The notes under the pieces were generated by a model that did not search any database, was not told the origin of the DNA, and was given only the letters and a program-made list of their open reading frames with translations. A stretch of DNA of 64,000 bases, taken from Escherichia phage VEc25. Below are positions 5,460-11,163 of this stretch, in pieces (the first letter of the stretch is position 1; each line of letters opens with the position of its first letter). The stretch lies in sequence record MW175414.1; one strand, given 5' to 3'. The translations under genes were made by a program, and so were the position numbers.

Positions 5460-6674
5460 ATGCAAACTTTTACTGCCCGTGAATATCTGAAAATTGACAT
5501 TGCTAATAACTATGGTCTGGATAAAGAAGACTGGGATGACCGTATTGCATGGTTCGATAAGAATGAGAACAACCTACTGAACCTTGTAAGAGAAGCTGAA
5601 GAACCAGCCCTGTTCTACGCCGGTGTTAAAGCATGGATGGACGTTAAGGAAGGTAAGCCAATTGGTTATCCTGTTGCACTGGATGCTACATCATCTGGTC
5701 TACAGATTCTGGCTTGTCTGACTGGTGACCGTAGAGCTGCTGAACTATGTAACGTTGTTAACTATCGTGATGAAAGTGGCAAAGTTAAACGTCGTGATGC
5801 TTATACAGTTATCTACAACAAGATGCTGAACACTCTTGGTAAAGGTGCTCGTATCAAACGTAATGACTGTAAACAAGCAATCATGACTGCTCTGTATGGT
5901 TCAGAAGCTAAACCAAAGGAAGTATTTGGTGAAGGCATTATGCTCAACGTATTTGAAAGCACAATGAATGTGGAAGCACCTGCTGTATGGGAACTGAATA
6001 AATTCTGGTTACAGTGTGGTAATCCAGAGGCTTTCGTATATCACTGGGTAATGCCAGATGGCTTTAACGTATATATCAAAGTAATGGTAAATGAAGTGGA
6101 GACTGTCCACTTCTTAGATAAGCCATATGACTGTGTTCGTAAAGTACAAGGTACTGAAGAGAAGACTCGTATGCTATCTGCCAATACCACTCACTCTATT
6201 GATGGCCTAGTAGTACGTGAGCTGGTTCGTCGTTGTGATTATGACAAGAACCAGATTGAATACATCAAGGCTCTTTGCAATGGTGAAGCTGAATATAAGG
6301 CTTCTGAAAAGAACTATGGCAAAGCAATGGAACTGTGGGGCTATTATGAGAAGACAGGATTCCTGACTGCTCGTATCTTTGATTATCTGGATTCTGAAAC
6401 TATTAAATTAGTAAATACTCAGGACATTCTAGACCTGATTGAATCCATGCCTAAGAAGCCATTCCATGTACTCACTGTACATGACTGCTTCCGTTGCCTG
6501 CCTAACTATGGCAATGACATTCGTCGTCAGTACAACAACTTGTTAGCTACTATTGCTAAAGGCGACTTACTCTCTTTCATTATGAGCCAGGTTCTAGGCC
6601 AAGAAGTTACTATTGGCAAACTAGACCCGACTCTATGGGAAGATATATTAGAAACCGAATACGCTCTATCTTAA
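5460..6674 (+). CDS. Phage RNA polymerase II, catalytic subunit (T7-like, N4 gp16-like)
   Basis: 404 aa from the ATG at 5460; motif A-like VALDATSSGLQILA, motif B-like K..MTALYGS and motif C-like LTVHDCF. Confidence 0.75.
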   Translation: MQTFTAREYLKIDIANNYGLDKEDWDDRIAWFDKNENNLLNLVREAEEPALFYAGVKAWMDVKEGKPIGYPVALDATSSGLQILACLTGDRRAAELCNVVNYRDESGKVKRRDAYTVIYNKMLNTLGKGARIKRNDCKQAIMTALYGSEAKPKEVFGEGIMLNVFESTMNVEAPAVWELNKFWLQCGNPEAFVYHWVMPDGFNVYIKVMVNEVETVHFLDKPYDCVRKVQGTEEKTRMLSANTTHSIDGLVVRELVRRCDYDKNQIEYIKALCNGEAEYKASEKNYGKAMELWGYYEKTGFLTARIFDYLDSETIKLVNTQDILDLIESMPKKPFHVLTVHDCFRCLPNYGNDIRRQYNNLLATIAKGDLLSFIMSQVLGQEVTIGKLDPTLWEDILETEYALS

Positions 6675-6681
6675 TAACTAA

Positions 6682-6715
6682 GGCTATCCCTACGGGGGTA
6701 GCCTTTATTTTTTTA
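6682..6715 (+). terminator. Rho-independent terminator
   Basis: GC-rich stem-loop ggctatccc-tacg-ggggtagcc followed by a T-run. Confidence 0.6.
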
Positions 6716-6725
6716 GTAAATCATA

Positions 6726-7598
6726 ATGGATAGGCATTTAACCTATGAGGAAATTAAAATGCCTGTTCTTAAAGTGATGTTTCATAAAGACACCAACGTA
6801 GCTACTGTACTGGATGCCAGTGGTAGCCTTAGTGATGGTTCCGTTGAGGTGGGTACTTTCCATCACCCTGATGAAACGTATCCCGATAGTGTAACTATCT
6901 ATCATGGTGTCCGTGACCTGCTGTATAAACGCAGTGCTAAAGACCCATCTCAAACTGCTTCTTACCCAAATAACATTATCAATATGCAAGTTATCAGTAT
7001 TGATATGAAGGCAACTCCTCGCTTGATTCTGGGTACTGCATTGCCTCGTGTAATCTCTACTATTGAAGGTAAAGATGTAACCTGGCATGTAGATGTTGCT
7101 GGTGGTAAAGCACCATTGACTTACAAGTGGCAGTTTAAAGCTAATACTGTAGGTGCTGCTTTCGCTGATATTGATTCCGGAGAGAATCCTACAGCTAAAA
7201 CTGCAACTCTTATTAACCATGCAGTAACTGCTGAATCTGCTGGTACTTATAAAGTCATCATTACTGATGCTAACGGTACTACTATCGAGAGTTCTTCTCT
7301 GCTGGTTGTAGGAGTTCAGGAACCACCTGAAGTAGCTTCTATTGTTGCTTACCCAAGTCCACTGGCTCTATCAGTGGCTGATGATATTACTGAAGGTAAA
7401 ACAGTTAAGTTTTCTTCCCTGCCTGCTGGCTCTTTGATTGGTACTCTGTCCATTAAGACCCAGCCTGACAGTGGTAAAGCTACTGCTGAGATTAGTGGTA
7501 ATGTACTGACAGTTAAACCTGTAGCCGCAGGTGACACTACTGTAGTAGTCACCAACGGAACCAAGGAAGTAACTGTTACGGTTAATGTTACAGAGTAA
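6726..7598 (+). CDS. Ig-like domain protein, probable capsid decoration protein (N4 gp17-like)
   Basis: Repeated beta-rich T/V/S segments typical of bacterial Ig-like folds; position directly after RNAP II as in N4. Confidence 0.5.
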   Translation: MDRHLTYEEIKMPVLKVMFHKDTNVATVLDASGSLSDGSVEVGTFHHPDETYPDSVTIYHGVRDLLYKRSAKDPSQTASYPNNIINMQVISIDMKATPRLILGTALPRVISTIEGKDVTWHVDVAGGKAPLTYKWQFKANTVGAAFADIDSGENPTAKTATLINHAVTAESAGTYKVIITDANGTTIESSSLLVVGVQEPPEVASIVAYPSPLALSVADDITEGKTVKFSSLPAGSLIGTLSIKTQPDSGKATAEISGNVLTVKPVAAGDTTVVVTNGTKEVTVTVNVTE

Positions 7599-7620
7599 TG
7601 TGATTGTTTTTATGAATGTA

Positions 7621-7645
7621 GCCCTCCTTGTGAGGGCTTTTTAGT
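7621..7645 (+). terminator. Rho-independent terminator
   Basis: gccctcc-ttgt-gagggc followed by TTTTT. Confidence 0.6.
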
Positions 7646-7667
7646 ATTTATAGGAGAGTAAATAATT

Positions 7668-7982
7668 ATGGCTAATAAGAACTGTCTTCGTGTATGGCAT
7701 ATCCCTCAAGTACCCGGCAAAGCCTTCTATGTTGAAGTAGATTCAGTAGAAGAAGGTGTACGTATCATTGATATACTAGCCAACTATGACCTATTCCAGT
7801 ATGAGAACAATATCAAAGGTGATTACTGCAATGTCTCTGGTTTACAGATGTATGATGAACATATCACTGATGATGAAATGGAAGAGATGGGTCTGACTGA
7901 CCGTTGGGTAGACTGGTACTATGAAGATGACCAGAGCTTTTTTGATAACCCGAAAGAGTATTTGAATAATCTCAAGAAGTAA
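7668..7982 (+). CDS. Hypothetical acidic protein
   Basis: ORF with RBS; D/E-rich. Confidence 0.45.
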   Translation: MANKNCLRVWHIPQVPGKAFYVEVDSVEEGVRIIDILANYDLFQYENNIKGDYCNVSGLQMYDEHITDDEMEEMGLTDRWVDWYYEDDQSFFDNPKEYLNNLKK

Positions 7983-8022
7983 TTTCTTGGGGTTAATGAC
8001 CCTTATTAATTCCTTATCCTTT

Positions 8023-8046
8023 GCCCTCCTATGGAGGGCTTTTTTA
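8023..8046 (+). terminator. Rho-independent terminator
   Basis: gccctcc-tatg-gagggc followed by TTTTTT. Confidence 0.55.
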
Positions 8047-8056
8047 CGGAGTACAA

Positions 8057-8263
8057 ATGTTTAAGTTCTTAGACCTTATCTGGGCAGTCATTTTGCTGGT
8101 TGCTACAGGCTTTGTATATGGCTTCTTGCTCCCATCAATGATGTCTGCTTTAGACAGCATCATTGTTGTTATGGGCTTGATAGTCTGTATTGTGTGGCCT
8201 CTTATCGTAGGCCGTATCGTTTATCTTACAGTTAAGAAAAGGATGAGAAGAAAACATGTATAA
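8057..8263 (+). CDS. Small two-helix membrane protein (NfeD-like partner candidate)
   Basis: 68-aa hydrophobic ORF with C-terminal basic tail; overlaps the start of the SPFH gene by 8 nt. Confidence 0.45.
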   Translation: MFKFLDLIWAVILLVATGFVYGFLLPSMMSALDSIIVVMGLIVCIVWPLIVGRIVYLTVKKRMRRKHV

Positions 8264-9092
8264 GTACATTGCAGTAGCAATTGCAGGGCTAATCATTGCT
8301 CTAAGTTTAACGAGCTGCTATGACCGAGTTGAACCAGGTAATGTAGGTATTATCGTTAACCGTCTTGGTGAAGATAAAGGTGTGGAAAATGAGGTTAAAG
8401 GTGTAGGCCGTTACTGGCTCACTTGGAATGAAGAACTTTATACATTCCCGACCTTTAAGCAGATGAAGACCTATGACGGTCTGTTCTACTTCCAACTGTC
8501 TGATGGTACTCAGATAGGCCACCAGATGGCTATCAGCTATAAAGTGAACCCTACTAAGGTAACTAATATCTTCCAGACGTATCGTAAGGGAGTTAATGAA
8601 ATTACCGAGCAGGATTTACGACAACGTATTGCTGATGTACTTAACAGACAGGGTAACCTGATTAACACTGATACCTTTATTGATGGTGGTAAATCTAAGC
8701 TACTGGATAGTGTCACTGACACAATCCGTAAAGAGATGGAACCAGTGGGGATTGATATTATTGCTATCTCCTGGATTGGTGCTCCTGAATACCCTGATAA
8801 CGTTAAACGTGCCATTAATGCCAAAGTAGAAGCTACTCAGAAAACTCTGCAACGTGAGCAAGAGATTCAGCAACGTGTAGCAGAAGCTAATATGGAACGT
8901 GAACAAGCTAAGGGTGTAGCAGATGCTATTCTGATTAAGGCTAAAGCAGAGGCTGATGCTATTCGTTTACGTGGTGAAGCACTCACTGAGAACCCAAATG
9001 TAATGCAACTGGAAGCCATTAATAAGTGGAATGGTACATTACCTACCACAATGATTCCTGGGGCTACTACACCTTTCGTTAATGTGAAATAA
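8256..9092 (+). CDS. SPFH/band-7 (HflK/C-like) membrane protein
   Basis: N-terminal TM helix, then a C-terminal coiled-coil rich in A/E/K/R (EATQKTLQREQEIQQRVAEANMEREQAKGVADAILIKAKAEADAIR) typical of SPFH proteins. Confidence 0.55.
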   Translation: MYKYIAVAIAGLIIALSLTSCYDRVEPGNVGIIVNRLGEDKGVENEVKGVGRYWLTWNEELYTFPTFKQMKTYDGLFYFQLSDGTQIGHQMAISYKVNPTKVTNIFQTYRKGVNEITEQDLRQRIADVLNRQGNLINTDTFIDGGKSKLLDSVTDTIRKEMEPVGIDIIAISWIGAPEYPDNVKRAINAKVEATQKTLQREQEIQQRVAEANMEREQAKGVADAILIKAKAEADAIRLRGEALTENPNVMQLEAINKWNGTLPTTMIPGATTPFVNVK

Positions 9093-9098
9093 CTAAGC

Positions 9099-9128
9099 AA
9101 ACCCACCATTACGGTGGGTTTATTTTTT
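9099..9128 (+). terminator. Rho-independent terminator
   Basis: aaacccacc-attac-ggtgggttt followed by a T-run. Confidence 0.6.
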
Positions 9129-9154
9129 GAAGTTATCTAACACTGGGTATTCCT

Positions 9155-9379
9155 ATGAAAGTAAATGTTTTACGTCGTAAGAAAGTTCCTTTCTTTCAAA
9201 TCAATTGTGGTTCATGTTTTCAACACGATGATGACTACTATATGAAGTGTAGTTATCAATCTAAAGAACACTTCTACGGTGTGAATTTACAAACAGGGCA
9301 TCTGTTCACATTTGATAATAATGACTTTGTTTATCCTGTGACTTTAGAAGCATGTATTCCTGACCCACTTAATAAATAG
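9155..9379 (+). CDS. Hypothetical protein
   Basis: ORF on the + strand. Confidence 0.35.
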   Translation: MKVNVLRRKKVPFFQINCGSCFQHDDDYYMKCSYQSKEHFYGVNLQTGHLFTFDNNDFVYPVTLEACIPDPLNK

Positions 9380-9380
9380 T

Positions 9381-9737
9381 ATGGCTCAAGAAAAGAATCG
9401 TCGTCAGACACTTATCGAACGTATTCAGGCCAGAATCAAATTACAGGACTTAGGCTATACCGTTAATGGTCAGCCTAGTCTCTGTCACATCTGGACTGGT
9501 TCACATTCAGGTAATGGACGTGGTGGGCAATATGGCAGGATTTCCGTGAATGGAGTTACCTCTGCAACTCATATTATTGCCTATACCCATTATCATGGTT
9601 ATATCCCCAATAAGATGCAAGTAGACCATCTCTGTAATAACCGTCTGTGCTGTAACCCTGAACATCTTGAATTGGTTACTCACCAAGAGAACCAGAGAAG
9701 AAGGGCTAAGCGTTCTAAATCTAAAGGAAATAAATAA
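9381..9737 (+). CDS. HNH endonuclease
   Basis: HNH motif region HYHGYIPNKMQVDHLCNNRLCCNPEHLELVTHQEN. Confidence 0.65.
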   Translation: MAQEKNRRQTLIERIQARIKLQDLGYTVNGQPSLCHIWTGSHSGNGRGGQYGRISVNGVTSATHIIAYTHYHGYIPNKMQVDHLCNNRLCCNPEHLELVTHQENQRRRAKRSKSKGNK

Positions 9738-9908
9738 ATGATTAAAAAACTTATTTGTAAACTTATTGCAGCAATCTTAATTAGTATTATTGGTATTGCA
9801 TGGGTAATTTCTACGCCAGATAACGTTATGCAACAAATTTATTATGCTGTATATACATCAACCTCTTTTGTTTGGGTTTATGTAATGTACCGTATTTGTA
9901 GCGACTAA
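9738..9908 (+). CDS. Small hydrophobic membrane protein (56 aa)
   Basis: ATG overlaps the stop of the HNH gene; two hydrophobic segments. Below the 60-aa ORF-track threshold, read by hand. Confidence 0.3.
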   Translation: MIKKLICKLIAAILISIIGIAWVISTPDNVMQQIYYAVYTSTSFVWVYVMYRICSD

Positions 9909-9937
9909 TACTTAATATAGCTTAACTGGAGAGTAAA

Positions 9938-10996
9938 ATGGCTAGTATTGATTCTATTGCCGTATGTAATCCACGGCAGGTACGTAAATTTGTTGAACAC
10001 TGTATCCGTTCAGGATTGGTTCCATTTATCACTTCATCTCCTGGTATGGGTAAATCTGCAATTGTTCGTCAGATTGCAGAAGATTTTGGCCTGAAACTGA
10101 TTGACCATCGTCTGTCTACTTCAGCACCAGAAGACCTGTCAGGTCTGCCTCGTTTTAAAGAAAATGGTCGTGCTGAATTTGCTCCATTTGATGAGCTATT
10201 CCCATTGGAAGGGGATGTTGTACCTGAAGGATTTAATGGCTGGCTTCTCTTTCTCGATGAGTTTAACTCTGCTCGTAAAGAGATTCAGGCTGCTGCTTAT
10301 AAATTGGTACTCGACCGTATGACTGGTCAGAAGAAGCTACATCCTTATGTAGCTATCGTATGTGCTGGTAACAAAGCAACTGACCGTGCCATTACTAATA
10401 ACCTATCTACAGCTATGCAATCACGTCTTATTCATCTGGAAATGGAGACTGATTTTGATGTCTTCATGGAAGATGTAGCCATCCCTAATAAGTGGGATGA
10501 GCGTGTAATTGCATTCCTGAATGCTAACCCAAATAAACTGAATGATTTTGAACCAGACCATCAAGAGAAGACTTTCTGTTGTTCTCGTACATGGGAGTTC
10601 GTTAACAAGATTGTTTCCATTCTCCCACCAGGACCAATTAATAGTGAAATGACTCTACTGTTAGCAGGCACTATCACTTCTGGTGTAGCAACATCATTCG
10701 TCCAGTTTACTCAGGTCTATAGCAACATGGTGTCTTTGAATGAGATTTTGGATAATCCTAAGAAAGCTCGTATGCCTGAAGACAATAACCTGTTGTGGGC
10801 TGTAGTCACTTCACTGATTAACAATACTGACGAAGATAATCATTCGAAAATCTTTGATTACGTTGAACGTATGCCATTTACGTTCAAGGTTTTGTACTAC
10901 CGTTCCGTAGGTAGTCTGGTTCCAGCTTTGGTTAAATTACCGAACTGGCGTGTTGCTGCAATCACATTATCTAAATACGTTCATGGTTCCAATTAA
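9938..10996 (+). CDS. AAA+ ATPase, MoxR-like
   Basis: Walker A SSPGMGKSA; Walker B-like LLFLDEFN; downstream VWA partner. Confidence 0.65.
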   Translation: MASIDSIAVCNPRQVRKFVEHCIRSGLVPFITSSPGMGKSAIVRQIAEDFGLKLIDHRLSTSAPEDLSGLPRFKENGRAEFAPFDELFPLEGDVVPEGFNGWLLFLDEFNSARKEIQAAAYKLVLDRMTGQKKLHPYVAIVCAGNKATDRAITNNLSTAMQSRLIHLEMETDFDVFMEDVAIPNKWDERVIAFLNANPNKLNDFEPDHQEKTFCCSRTWEFVNKIVSILPPGPINSEMTLLLAGTITSGVATSFVQFTQVYSNMVSLNEILDNPKKARMPEDNNLLWAVVTSLINNTDEDNHSKIFDYVERMPFTFKVLYYRSVGSLVPALVKLPNWRVAAITLSKYVHGSN

Positions 10997-11163
10997 TAAG
11001 AAGGGAGTTACAGACCTCCTGTATGTTGCTGGCTTTAACGGTGAAGAAATTACCGTATATGCCTCAAGTCTGGCTGCTGCTAAACAAAAGGCAGTTGAAT
11101 ACTTTCGTCCAAAGAAACGTGTAGCCCATACTATTTGGGTTCATCTCGCAGAGGAAAACTGAT

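Follow-up and report, generated by a model that had tools for sequence, protein, structure and literature searches.

Introduction

Why do bacteriophages carry genes for SPFH (Band 7) proteins, and what is the small membrane protein encoded directly upstream of such a gene? The question is raised by gp19-gp20, a gene pair at positions 8057-9092 of a 64,000-nucleotide (nt) stretch of Escherichia phage VEc25 (MW175414.1), the whole of which we call the window. Band 7 open reading frames (ORFs) were noted in T4-like phages in 2006 (PMC1524935), and a 2026 paper on an N4-like phage states that the reason for phage SPFH genes "remains unclear", its guess being adsorption or DNA entry (PMC13239085). 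For the Staphylococcus phage K group (Kayvirus), it was speculated that the SPFH protein MbpS aids Sec-dependent export of Tgl (PMC7150955). In the literature on SPFH proteins in phages, on N4, on prophages and on anti-phage systems we found annotation-level mentions only and no functional study of a phage SPFH protein; two surveys of prokaryotic SPFH proteins mention neither phages nor lipoproteins, and a CRISPRi-ART phage fitness paper holds no N4 data.

Here we report that gp20 has an SPFH fold and a canonical lipobox, that a two-helix hairpin gene accompanies the SPFH gene at nearly all viral loci retrieved, and that the two genes behave as an independent mobile cassette. The gp20 gene itself was previously annotated, standing in databases as "SPFH domain protein" or "lipoprotein", and is not a new kind of protein. 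What seems to be undescribed is that, in many phage lineages, a mobile cassette combines a predicted exported and lipid-anchored SPFH protein with a conserved mini-hairpin partner.

Positions 7600-9400 are 98.7% identical to phage N4 (NC_008720), with the same coordinates, and at least 99% identical to the PMBT57, AlfredRasser and BEU phages (megablast). The pair and its translation signals are as follows.

8057-8263, plus strand: gp19, ATG start, 68 amino acids (aa); N4 annotation "membrane protein"
8256-9092, plus strand: gp20, 278 aa; N4 annotation "lipoprotein", with the note "similar to Yersinia pestis protein"
8048-8051, plus strand: Shine-Dalgarno sequence GGAG of gp19, 5 nt 5' of the ATG, by sequence reading
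8256-8263, plus strand: overlap of the gp20 start codon with the gp19 stop codon, 8 nt

The overlap suggests translational coupling, and a purine-rich stretch, AGGATGAGAAG, lies 5' of it. In the majority of homologous loci the hairpin and SPFH ORFs likewise overlap or are separated by at most 4 nt. The initial annotation described a coupled pair made of a 68-aa two-helix membrane protein and a 278-aa protein; the ORFs, the 8-nt overlap and the two gp19 helices were all recovered, and the coupling is probable from the overlap.

gp20 has an SPFH fold

The gp20 protein matches the Pfam Band_7/SPFH family (PF01145) at 84 bits against a cutoff of 23.6 (E=1.7e-23, residues 24-210) and PHROG 200 "lipoprotein" at E=6.8e-95. 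An AlphaFold2 (AF2) model built on 23 homologues, with a mean predicted local distance difference test score (pLDDT) of 77, consists of a confident alpha/beta core, one helix at residues 181-245 and a disordered C-terminus.

8325-8885, plus strand: SPFH (Band_7) domain, aa 24-210; pLDDT 77-93 across most of the core
8796-8990, plus strand: long helix rich in A/E/K/R, aa 181-245, the counterpart of the SPFH-cage wall helix
9024-9044, plus strand: C-terminal motif K257-W-N-G-T-L-P263, with invariant K, W, G and P in every phage lineage sampled

When the model was compared with the PDB by Foldseek, the matches were full-length SPFH cage subunits at probability 1.0 and E=1e-14 to 1e-8: prohibitin (8rrh, E=1.7e-14), HflK/C (7vhq, 7wi3, 9cz2), erlin, stomatin, flotillin and QmcA (8z5g, the QmcA-YbbJ complex). 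HflK/HflC is among the top structural matches, and the cages of prohibitin, stomatin and erlin are the best full-length fold matches; the latter differ from gp20 in being eukaryotic and anchored by a transmembrane (TM) helix or hairpin, and share 16-18% identity with it. By sequence alone, the prohibitin-2 coiled coil was the sole match in the PDB, and the gp20 helix aligns with this coiled coil as well as with full-length cage subunits. Thus the SPFH assignment of the initial annotation is borne out by both profile and modelled fold, and the A/E/K/R coiled coil that it placed at the C-terminus corresponds to the single modelled helix 181-245. The C-terminal motif has low confidence in the monomer model, as would be expected for a segment that orders only in the oligomer.

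HflC was the sole NCBIfam match of gp20, at 19.6 bits against a cutoff of 134.4. On these comparisons gp20 is classed as a true SPFH protein and not as an HflK/C orthologue; orthology was rejected on this score, which lies far under the cutoff, and HflK/C was retained as a functional analogy. N4 and every locus examined carry one SPFH gene. Many records misname the SPFH protein "serine protease".

gp20 begins with a lipoprotein signal peptide

Hydropathy analysis shows two hydrophobic helices for gp19 and, for gp20, a single hydrophobic segment at the N-terminus. The initial annotation took this segment for a TM helix, a reading that does not stand: the sequence M-Y-K is followed by hydrophobic residues 4-17 and then by L18-T19-S20-C21, a canonical lipobox by the pattern [LVI][ASTVI][GAS]C.

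8256-8318, plus strand: signal peptide II and lipobox L18-T19-S20-C21, signal peptide aa 1-20; residue +2 is Tyr and +3 is Asp

By this pattern the N-terminus is a lipoprotein signal peptide rather than a plain TM anchor, and lipidation is predicted. As a member of the Band 7 family, gp20 therefore has its N-terminal membrane attachment in a variant form, the signal peptide and lipobox Cys21 replacing the TM helix or hairpin. The lipobox Cys is invariant in an alignment (A2) that spans N4, enterobacterial prophages and phage-plasmids, Vequintavirinae (BIS47), Pseudomonas phages Ostro and Arefeen1, Erwinia phage Fifi318, Caulobacter phage phiCbK, a crAss-like phage and Staphylococcus Kayvirus.

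The residues after the Cys bear on which membrane gp20 would occupy. Of the 120 closest homologues, 53 have Tyr at +2, 39 have Asp and one has Trp. Seydel et al. are said to have found in 1999 that aromatic +2 residues give inner-membrane retention. Asp at +2 is the canonical Escherichia coli signal for Lol avoidance and inner-membrane retention, and hydrophilic +3 residues likewise impair LolCDE binding (PMC9595528). Furthermore, 11 homologue clusters from plasmids and prophages (P0081, P0082, P0084, P0085, P0088, P0089, P0091, P0100, P0104, P0109 and P0120) have Tyr in place of the lipobox Cys (..IIGYDR..), and these variants are widespread, P0088 being found on 175 contigs and P0091 on 50. 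By their sequences they could not be lipidated and are probably, most simply, inner-membrane signal anchors. From the +2/+3 residues, the Cys-to-Tyr variants and the integral-membrane partner together, we infer that gp20 is most economically placed at the inner membrane on its periplasmic face, the side on which HflK/C also lie. QmcA faces the cytoplasm, whereas gp20 is predicted to be exported.

The hairpin partner gp19

The gp19 protein belongs to PHROG 1130 "membrane protein" (E=2.7e-20) and ends in a basic tail, KKRMRRKHV. Because of the positive-inside rule, its predicted topology is N-in/C-in, with both ends cytoplasmic and a conserved turn facing the periplasm.

8132-8176, plus strand: gp19 inter-helix turn P26-x3-S30-x2-D33-x6-G40, with P26, S30 and G40 invariant in the partner alignment (A3)

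Across A3 the turn reads Y-G-x3-P-x3-S-x2-(D/S)-x6-G and is followed by the basic C-terminal tail, with P48 near-invariant. Single-sequence searches with gp19 returned two relatives (word-indexed) or five (exhaustive). The family is too divergent for such searches, and it was therefore retrieved by gene position and by a profile built here; its members have 62-84 aa and two TM helices.

The initial annotation likened the pair to bacterial NfeD-SPFH operons. The likeness of gene order stood: as in QmcA-YbbJ (PDB 8z5g) and YuaF-FloT, a small membrane-protein gene lies directly upstream of the SPFH gene, co-oriented and coupled. The likeness of the partner did not. None of 16 family members matches NfeD (PF01957) even at E<=1, and the family profile searched against the PDB retrieved neither YbbJ nor any other chain, only noise-level TM matches. 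Since two TM helices occupy a protein of only 62-84 aa, there is no space for an OB-fold, and gp19 differs from NfeD in lacking that domain.

On sequence features gp19 also resembles a class II holin, being small, with two TM helices, N-in/C-in topology and a charged C-terminus. Other comparisons do not bear this identity out: its best holin match in Pfam reaches 14.3 bits against 28.4, the gene lies outside the lysis cassette, and the N4 pinholin is gp63 of the gp60-63 cassette (PMC12642591).

A hairpin gene accompanies the SPFH gene

Eighty IMG/VR loci were retrieved with the SPFH protein. In 79 of them the SPFH start is abutted or overlapped by the end of a two-TM ORF of 62-78 aa; the remaining locus is cut off where its contig stops. 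Because 79/80 loci retain both ORFs, gp19 and gp20 are real genes, a conclusion based on conservation and not on chance statistics. Two partner ORFs had escaped annotation, each overlapping the SPFH start: one in Stx2a phage Stx2_95 (LC567838; L004 2256-2444), with a profile E-value of 6e-27, and one in the crAss-like phage cr128_1 (NC_055885; L010 1254-1457), with E=7e-4 in a small search space. The latter keeps the Ser and Gly of the turn and lacks the Pro. The A3 profile also matches the partners in BIS47 and Ostro, and those of Arefeen1 and Fifi318 show the same P/S/G spacing one or two genes farther upstream.

Among 79 bacterial genome loci from Gamma- and Alphaproteobacteria, Bacteroidota and one cyanobacterium, a two-TM ORF lies upstream of the SPFH gene in 32 and downstream, as an internal control, in 3. 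The partners in Sphingomonas and Caulobacter retain a P-x3-(S/N)-x2-D turn.

In Kayvirus, MbpS is an SPFH homologue with about 30% identity by tblastn and 25% in A2. Its neighbour MbpV is likewise a small membrane protein, with a stop codon abutting the MbpS start. In contrast to gp19, MbpV combines a single TM helix with a long charged tail, it does not match the gp19 profile, and the pair lies in the lysis region.

One protein joins the two genes. In P0074 (an NCBI protein of 347 aa whose locus type is related to L050) the hairpin, signal peptide, lipobox and SPFH domain are fused in frame. Such a fusion is consistent only with a cytoplasmic hairpin C-terminus and so lends weak support to the predicted topology; cleavage by LspA would recreate both products, and the fusion may be a tolerated frameshift or a sequencing error. 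In the chromosomes of Shigella flexneri (L096) and E. coli (L097) about 770 nt lie between the hairpin gene and the SPFH start codon downstream of it, which suggests an insertion at this point.

The gene pair behaves as a mobile cassette

By tblastn the SPFH family occurs in 702 phage records and 743 plasmid records. The plasmid carriers are mostly non-mobilisable and about 90-115 kb in size, and include Y. pestis plasmids of 99-137 kb and IncFIB phage-plasmids. A copy is present in 716 of 5,426 complete E. coli genomes (about 13%), at 418 chromosomal and 390 plasmid places (megablast). The hosts of the phage family are Proteobacteria, Bacteroidota and Staphylococcus.

The surroundings of the pair differ from element to element. 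It follows the RNA polymerase II (RNAPII) genes in N4 and Moo19, and an exonuclease and recombinase in SSU5-like phage-plasmids. In Stx2_95 it stands between cI and xis/int, in another prophage type in a nin-like region between a CII-like regulator and Ant/RusA, and in a third between a methyltransferase and the DnaB helicase. The phage-plasmid cassette has a sigma70-like promoter (TTGAAA-17-TATCAT) 30 nt 5' of the hairpin gene and a GC-rich terminator 21 nt past the SPFH stop. The pair thus behaves as an independent cassette, as the initial annotation had proposed from the bracketing terminators; its own promoter and terminator in the SSU5-like phage-plasmids and its differing positions in prophages speak for this.

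Within the cassette, the hairpin partner diverges far faster than the SPFH core. SPFH identity is 91% and hairpin identity 26% between L050 and L078; the corresponding values are 96% and 43% between Moo19 and L014, and 95% and 59% between L017 and L019. The DNA similarity of L050 to L078 and to L098 is confined to the mature part of the SPFH gene, starting just past the lipobox (blastn), and that between Moo19 (L003) and L014 spans essentially the whole SPFH gene and not the hairpin gene. In these pairs the similarity is 87-89%, the partner gene and flanks are unaligned, and the prophages are otherwise non-homologous. The same partial coverage (73%) was seen among E. coli genomes. Three causes may account for the contrast: much stronger purifying selection on a protein rich in oligomer interfaces, separate horizontal transfer of the core, or diversifying selection acting on the hairpin.

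Transcription signals

In VEc25 the pair is bracketed by hairpins that resemble intrinsic terminators.

8023-8045, plus strand: upstream terminator-like hairpin, GCCCTCC-TAT-GGAGGGC followed by T6; closes the gp18 cassette and ends 11 nt before the gp19 start
9099-9129, plus strand: downstream terminator-like hairpin, 9-bp stem followed by a T-run, 7 nt past the gp20 stop

The upstream hairpin (8023-8039) has a 7-bp stem and a folding energy of -13.6 kcal/mol (z=-3.0), and the downstream one (9099-9121) an energy of -14.3 kcal/mol (z=-4.2). Both were recovered by a terminator scan where the initial annotation had placed them, and both sites are annotated as terminators in phage Jura. Across 6500-11000 the scan found 10 terminator-like sites, compared with 2.7 expected from shuffled sequences. 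Similar hairpins follow gp16 (6680-6705) and gp17 (7620-7638), such that gp17, gp18 and gp19-20 form three successive units, each ending in a strong hairpin and T-run. The stems at 7620 and 8023 are near-identical (GCCCTCC...GGAGGGC). A structured RNA in place of terminators was considered and rejected, nothing in 6500-10000 exceeding the Rfam threshold.

Only 17-33 nt separate each hairpin from the next start codon, too little for a promoter of its own behind every hairpin. Transcription of gp19-20 would therefore proceed by read-through of the 8023 hairpin or from an AT-rich RNAPII promoter overlapping the hairpin and T-run. The N4 review describes the RNAPII promoter only as "AT-rich, -7 to +2"; this description is too vague for a middle promoter of the cassette to be mapped. 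Expression would be early or middle.

A model for the gp19-gp20 assembly

Our overall explanation is that gp19-gp20 is a mobile two-gene envelope cassette combining a lipid-anchored SPFH scaffold with a hairpin partner, and we give it a probability of roughly 0.4. In this model gp20 would leave the cytoplasm through Sec, receive its lipid at Cys21 and be cut by signal peptidase II. The SPFH domain, wall helix and conserved C-terminus would then assemble into a multimeric ring or dome, lipid-tethered on the periplasmic side of the inner membrane. A ring or dome is expected because, to our knowledge, all full-length SPFH structures solved so far are closed or nearly closed rings around an isolated patch of membrane. 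gp19 would be made in step with gp20 through translational coupling and would sit in the inner membrane as a hairpin with both ends cytoplasmic, showing its P-x3-S-x2-D turn to the periplasm. Holding the operon position of NfeD while unrelated to it, gp19 would act as the integral-membrane partner on which the cage docks or which it encloses, with the hairpins beneath the cage or at its rim. We regard this structural picture as likely.

The assembly would fence off a patch of inner membrane, either early in infection or, in prophages and phage-plasmids, continuously. The physiological role is tentative: a function in guarding the envelope, in its likeliest form the exclusion of superinfecting phages as their genomes cross the inner membrane, is possible rather than probable. 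The initial annotation had suggested altered membrane microdomains, membrane proteases or superinfection exclusion as possible functions. This role is favoured because of the autonomous signals in temperate elements, the neighbour gp18, the fast divergence of the hairpin and a gap in N4, whose superinfection-exclusion system is uncharacterised and explicitly sought (PMC12642591). The gp18 gene (window 7668-7982) encodes a member of Pfam GP17, the P22 gp17 family (E=1e-55), and of PHROG 1510 "superinfection exclusion". Self-contained cassettes with their own signals in temperate elements are typical of exclusion and defence genes. Additionally, a hairpin identity of 26% against 91% for the SPFH protein is as expected for a specificity or arms-race component, and the fast-evolving hairpin would be the variable part of exclusion. 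Comparable products are known in T4 Imm and Sp, T5 Llp and P22 SieA, small inner-membrane or lipoprotein accessory factors whose genes lie outside the late structural and lysis blocks; these differ in having no sequence or fold relation to gp19-20, and none has an SPFH scaffold.

Several observations weigh against this role or the location it requires. No PADLOC-DB defence or exclusion model matched gp18, gp19 or gp20, and no similarity to known exclusion proteins was found. The family is present in phages of Proteobacteria, Bacteroidota and Staphylococcus with unrelated receptors, which points to a generic membrane role and not necessarily to exclusion. The divergence of the hairpin could merely mean weak constraint on TM helices. 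In N4 gp20 the +2 residue is Tyr, not Asp, and an outer-membrane location is thus possible. Finally, a simple detector did not find an adjacent hairpin at many Caulobacterales and Bacteroidales genome loci.

In its strongest form, the exclusion role would make gp19-gp20 the superinfection-exclusion system still missing for N4 and the founding example of a widespread exclusion or defence cassette of phages, prophages and phage-plasmids. The periplasmic SPFH lipoprotein cage would serve as the chassis, the hypervariable hairpin would decide what is excluded, and the inner-membrane site at which an incoming phage genome passes would be walled off. We consider this broader claim unlikely.

Alternative explanations

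The alternative that survives best is that the pair mimics HflK/C, the gp20 cage and the TM contacts of gp19 enclosing or titrating FtsH or another inner-membrane protease and thereby stabilising phage or host membrane proteins. Compartment and architecture would be the same as in HflK/C, namely an SPFH domain that faces the periplasm at the inner membrane, continued by a long wall helix and, at the C-terminus, a closure segment; HflC is the only NCBIfam match of gp20; and a universal protease such as FtsH fits the very wide host range of the family. Phages do inhibit host proteases, as lambda CIII does FtsH. Against this, the HflC score is that of a non-orthologue, the single SPFH gene stands in place of a K/C pair, gp20 is predicted to be anchored by a lipid and has no TM helix of its own, unlike HflK/C with their N-terminal one, and gp20 is not known to be linked to FtsH. 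A mimic of this kind is not likely either.

A role in lysis timing or membrane integrity is suggested by the holin-like form of gp19. A holin-like gp19 might be corralled by the SPFH cage, or the energised membrane might be stabilised, which would contribute to the long latent period and lysis inhibition of N4. In support, gp19 has class II holin features and weak, sub-threshold matches to holin families; mbpS and mbpV adjoin lysK and holA in Kayvirus (PMC7150955); and N4 undergoes lysis inhibition, its bursts reaching about 3000 (PMC12642591). Genetic data from the same 2025 N4 preprint speak against it. More than 60 independent rapid-lysis mutants fell in gp61, gp63, gp50, the terminal repeat and scattered single sites, with none in gp19 or gp20, and the gp60-63 cassette suffices to reproduce lysis inhibition (PMC12642591). 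Outside Kayvirus, furthermore, the cassette is distant from the lysis genes. Because the published rapid-lysis set contains no gp19 or gp20 alleles, we lowered our estimate of this explanation and consider it improbable.

The pair could also be a counter-defence shield, the cage guarding the inner membrane or a membrane sensor against abortive-infection effectors that depolarise or perforate it. The genomic position in lytic phages is consistent with early expression, and a family distributed widely regardless of receptor type, with a copy in about 13% of complete E. coli genomes, would suit a shield. The proposal is purely inferential, it leaves the self-contained cassettes of prophages and phage-plasmids unexplained, and no precedent was found in the literature searched; we judge it quite improbable.

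Least probable of all is that gp20 sits in the outer membrane as a lipoprotein and, like T5 Llp or Cor, masks or inactivates the phage receptor, preventing superinfection and loss of progeny on cell debris: gp20 is a predicted lipoprotein from the early/middle region, the N4 version lacks Asp at +2 and T5 Llp is a precedent for an early phage lipoprotein, yet the family occurs in phages with unrelated receptors and Gram-positive hosts, close homologues do have Asp at +2, the conserved partner is a predicted inner-membrane hairpin, and the SPFH fold is that of an oligomeric scaffold, not of a receptor plug.

Implications

The SPFH cages of HflK/C, prohibitin, stomatin and flotillin are understood structurally, while their effect on the enclosed membrane patch is largely an open question. 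A compact SPFH protein, predicted to be exported and lipid-anchored and paired with a partner of about 65 aa, would offer a minimal model for an SPFH cage engaging a membrane client. In N4, lysis inhibition responds to superinfection, and the exclusion system is being sought for that reason (PMC12642591); gp19-gp20 is a concrete candidate for it. If the exclusion role is correct, this would be the first SPFH cage shown to act in phage-phage competition and would supply the sensor of superinfection that lies upstream of lysis inhibition in N4. Genetic work in N4 is practicable, deletions having already been made with the help of Cas13a (PMC12642591). Annotation fixes are due for the "serine protease" names and for records from which the partner ORF is missing.

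Neighbouring genes

Upstream of the pair lie gp15 and gp16, the RNAPII subunits, followed by gp17, which is Ig-like (PHROG 2973) and is a capsid decoration protein of N4 (PMC11768535). The initial annotation had allowed for gp20 being a conserved virion component; nothing found marks it as one, and only its neighbour gp17 is a known capsid decoration protein. The gp17 gene (window 6726-7598) is a virion decoration gene in the rightward early/middle region, distant from the late structural genes; the first ATG of its ORF is at 6726, and the RefSeq start is at 6759. gp18 adjoins gp19-20 in both N4 and Moo19.

Downstream, the genes in order are gp21, gp22 (an HNH endonuclease), gp23 and gp24 (an AAA ATPase). 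gp21 (9155-9379) encodes a Cys/His-rich protein of 74 aa with a zf-UBP match below threshold, and gp23 (9738-9908) a very hydrophobic protein of 56 aa, apparently with two TM helices. The gp22 endonuclease gene (9381-9737) carries a pseudogene flag in phage Jura. In Moo19 the gp22 homologue directly follows the SPFH gene and gp21 is absent, which marks the region as locally variable.

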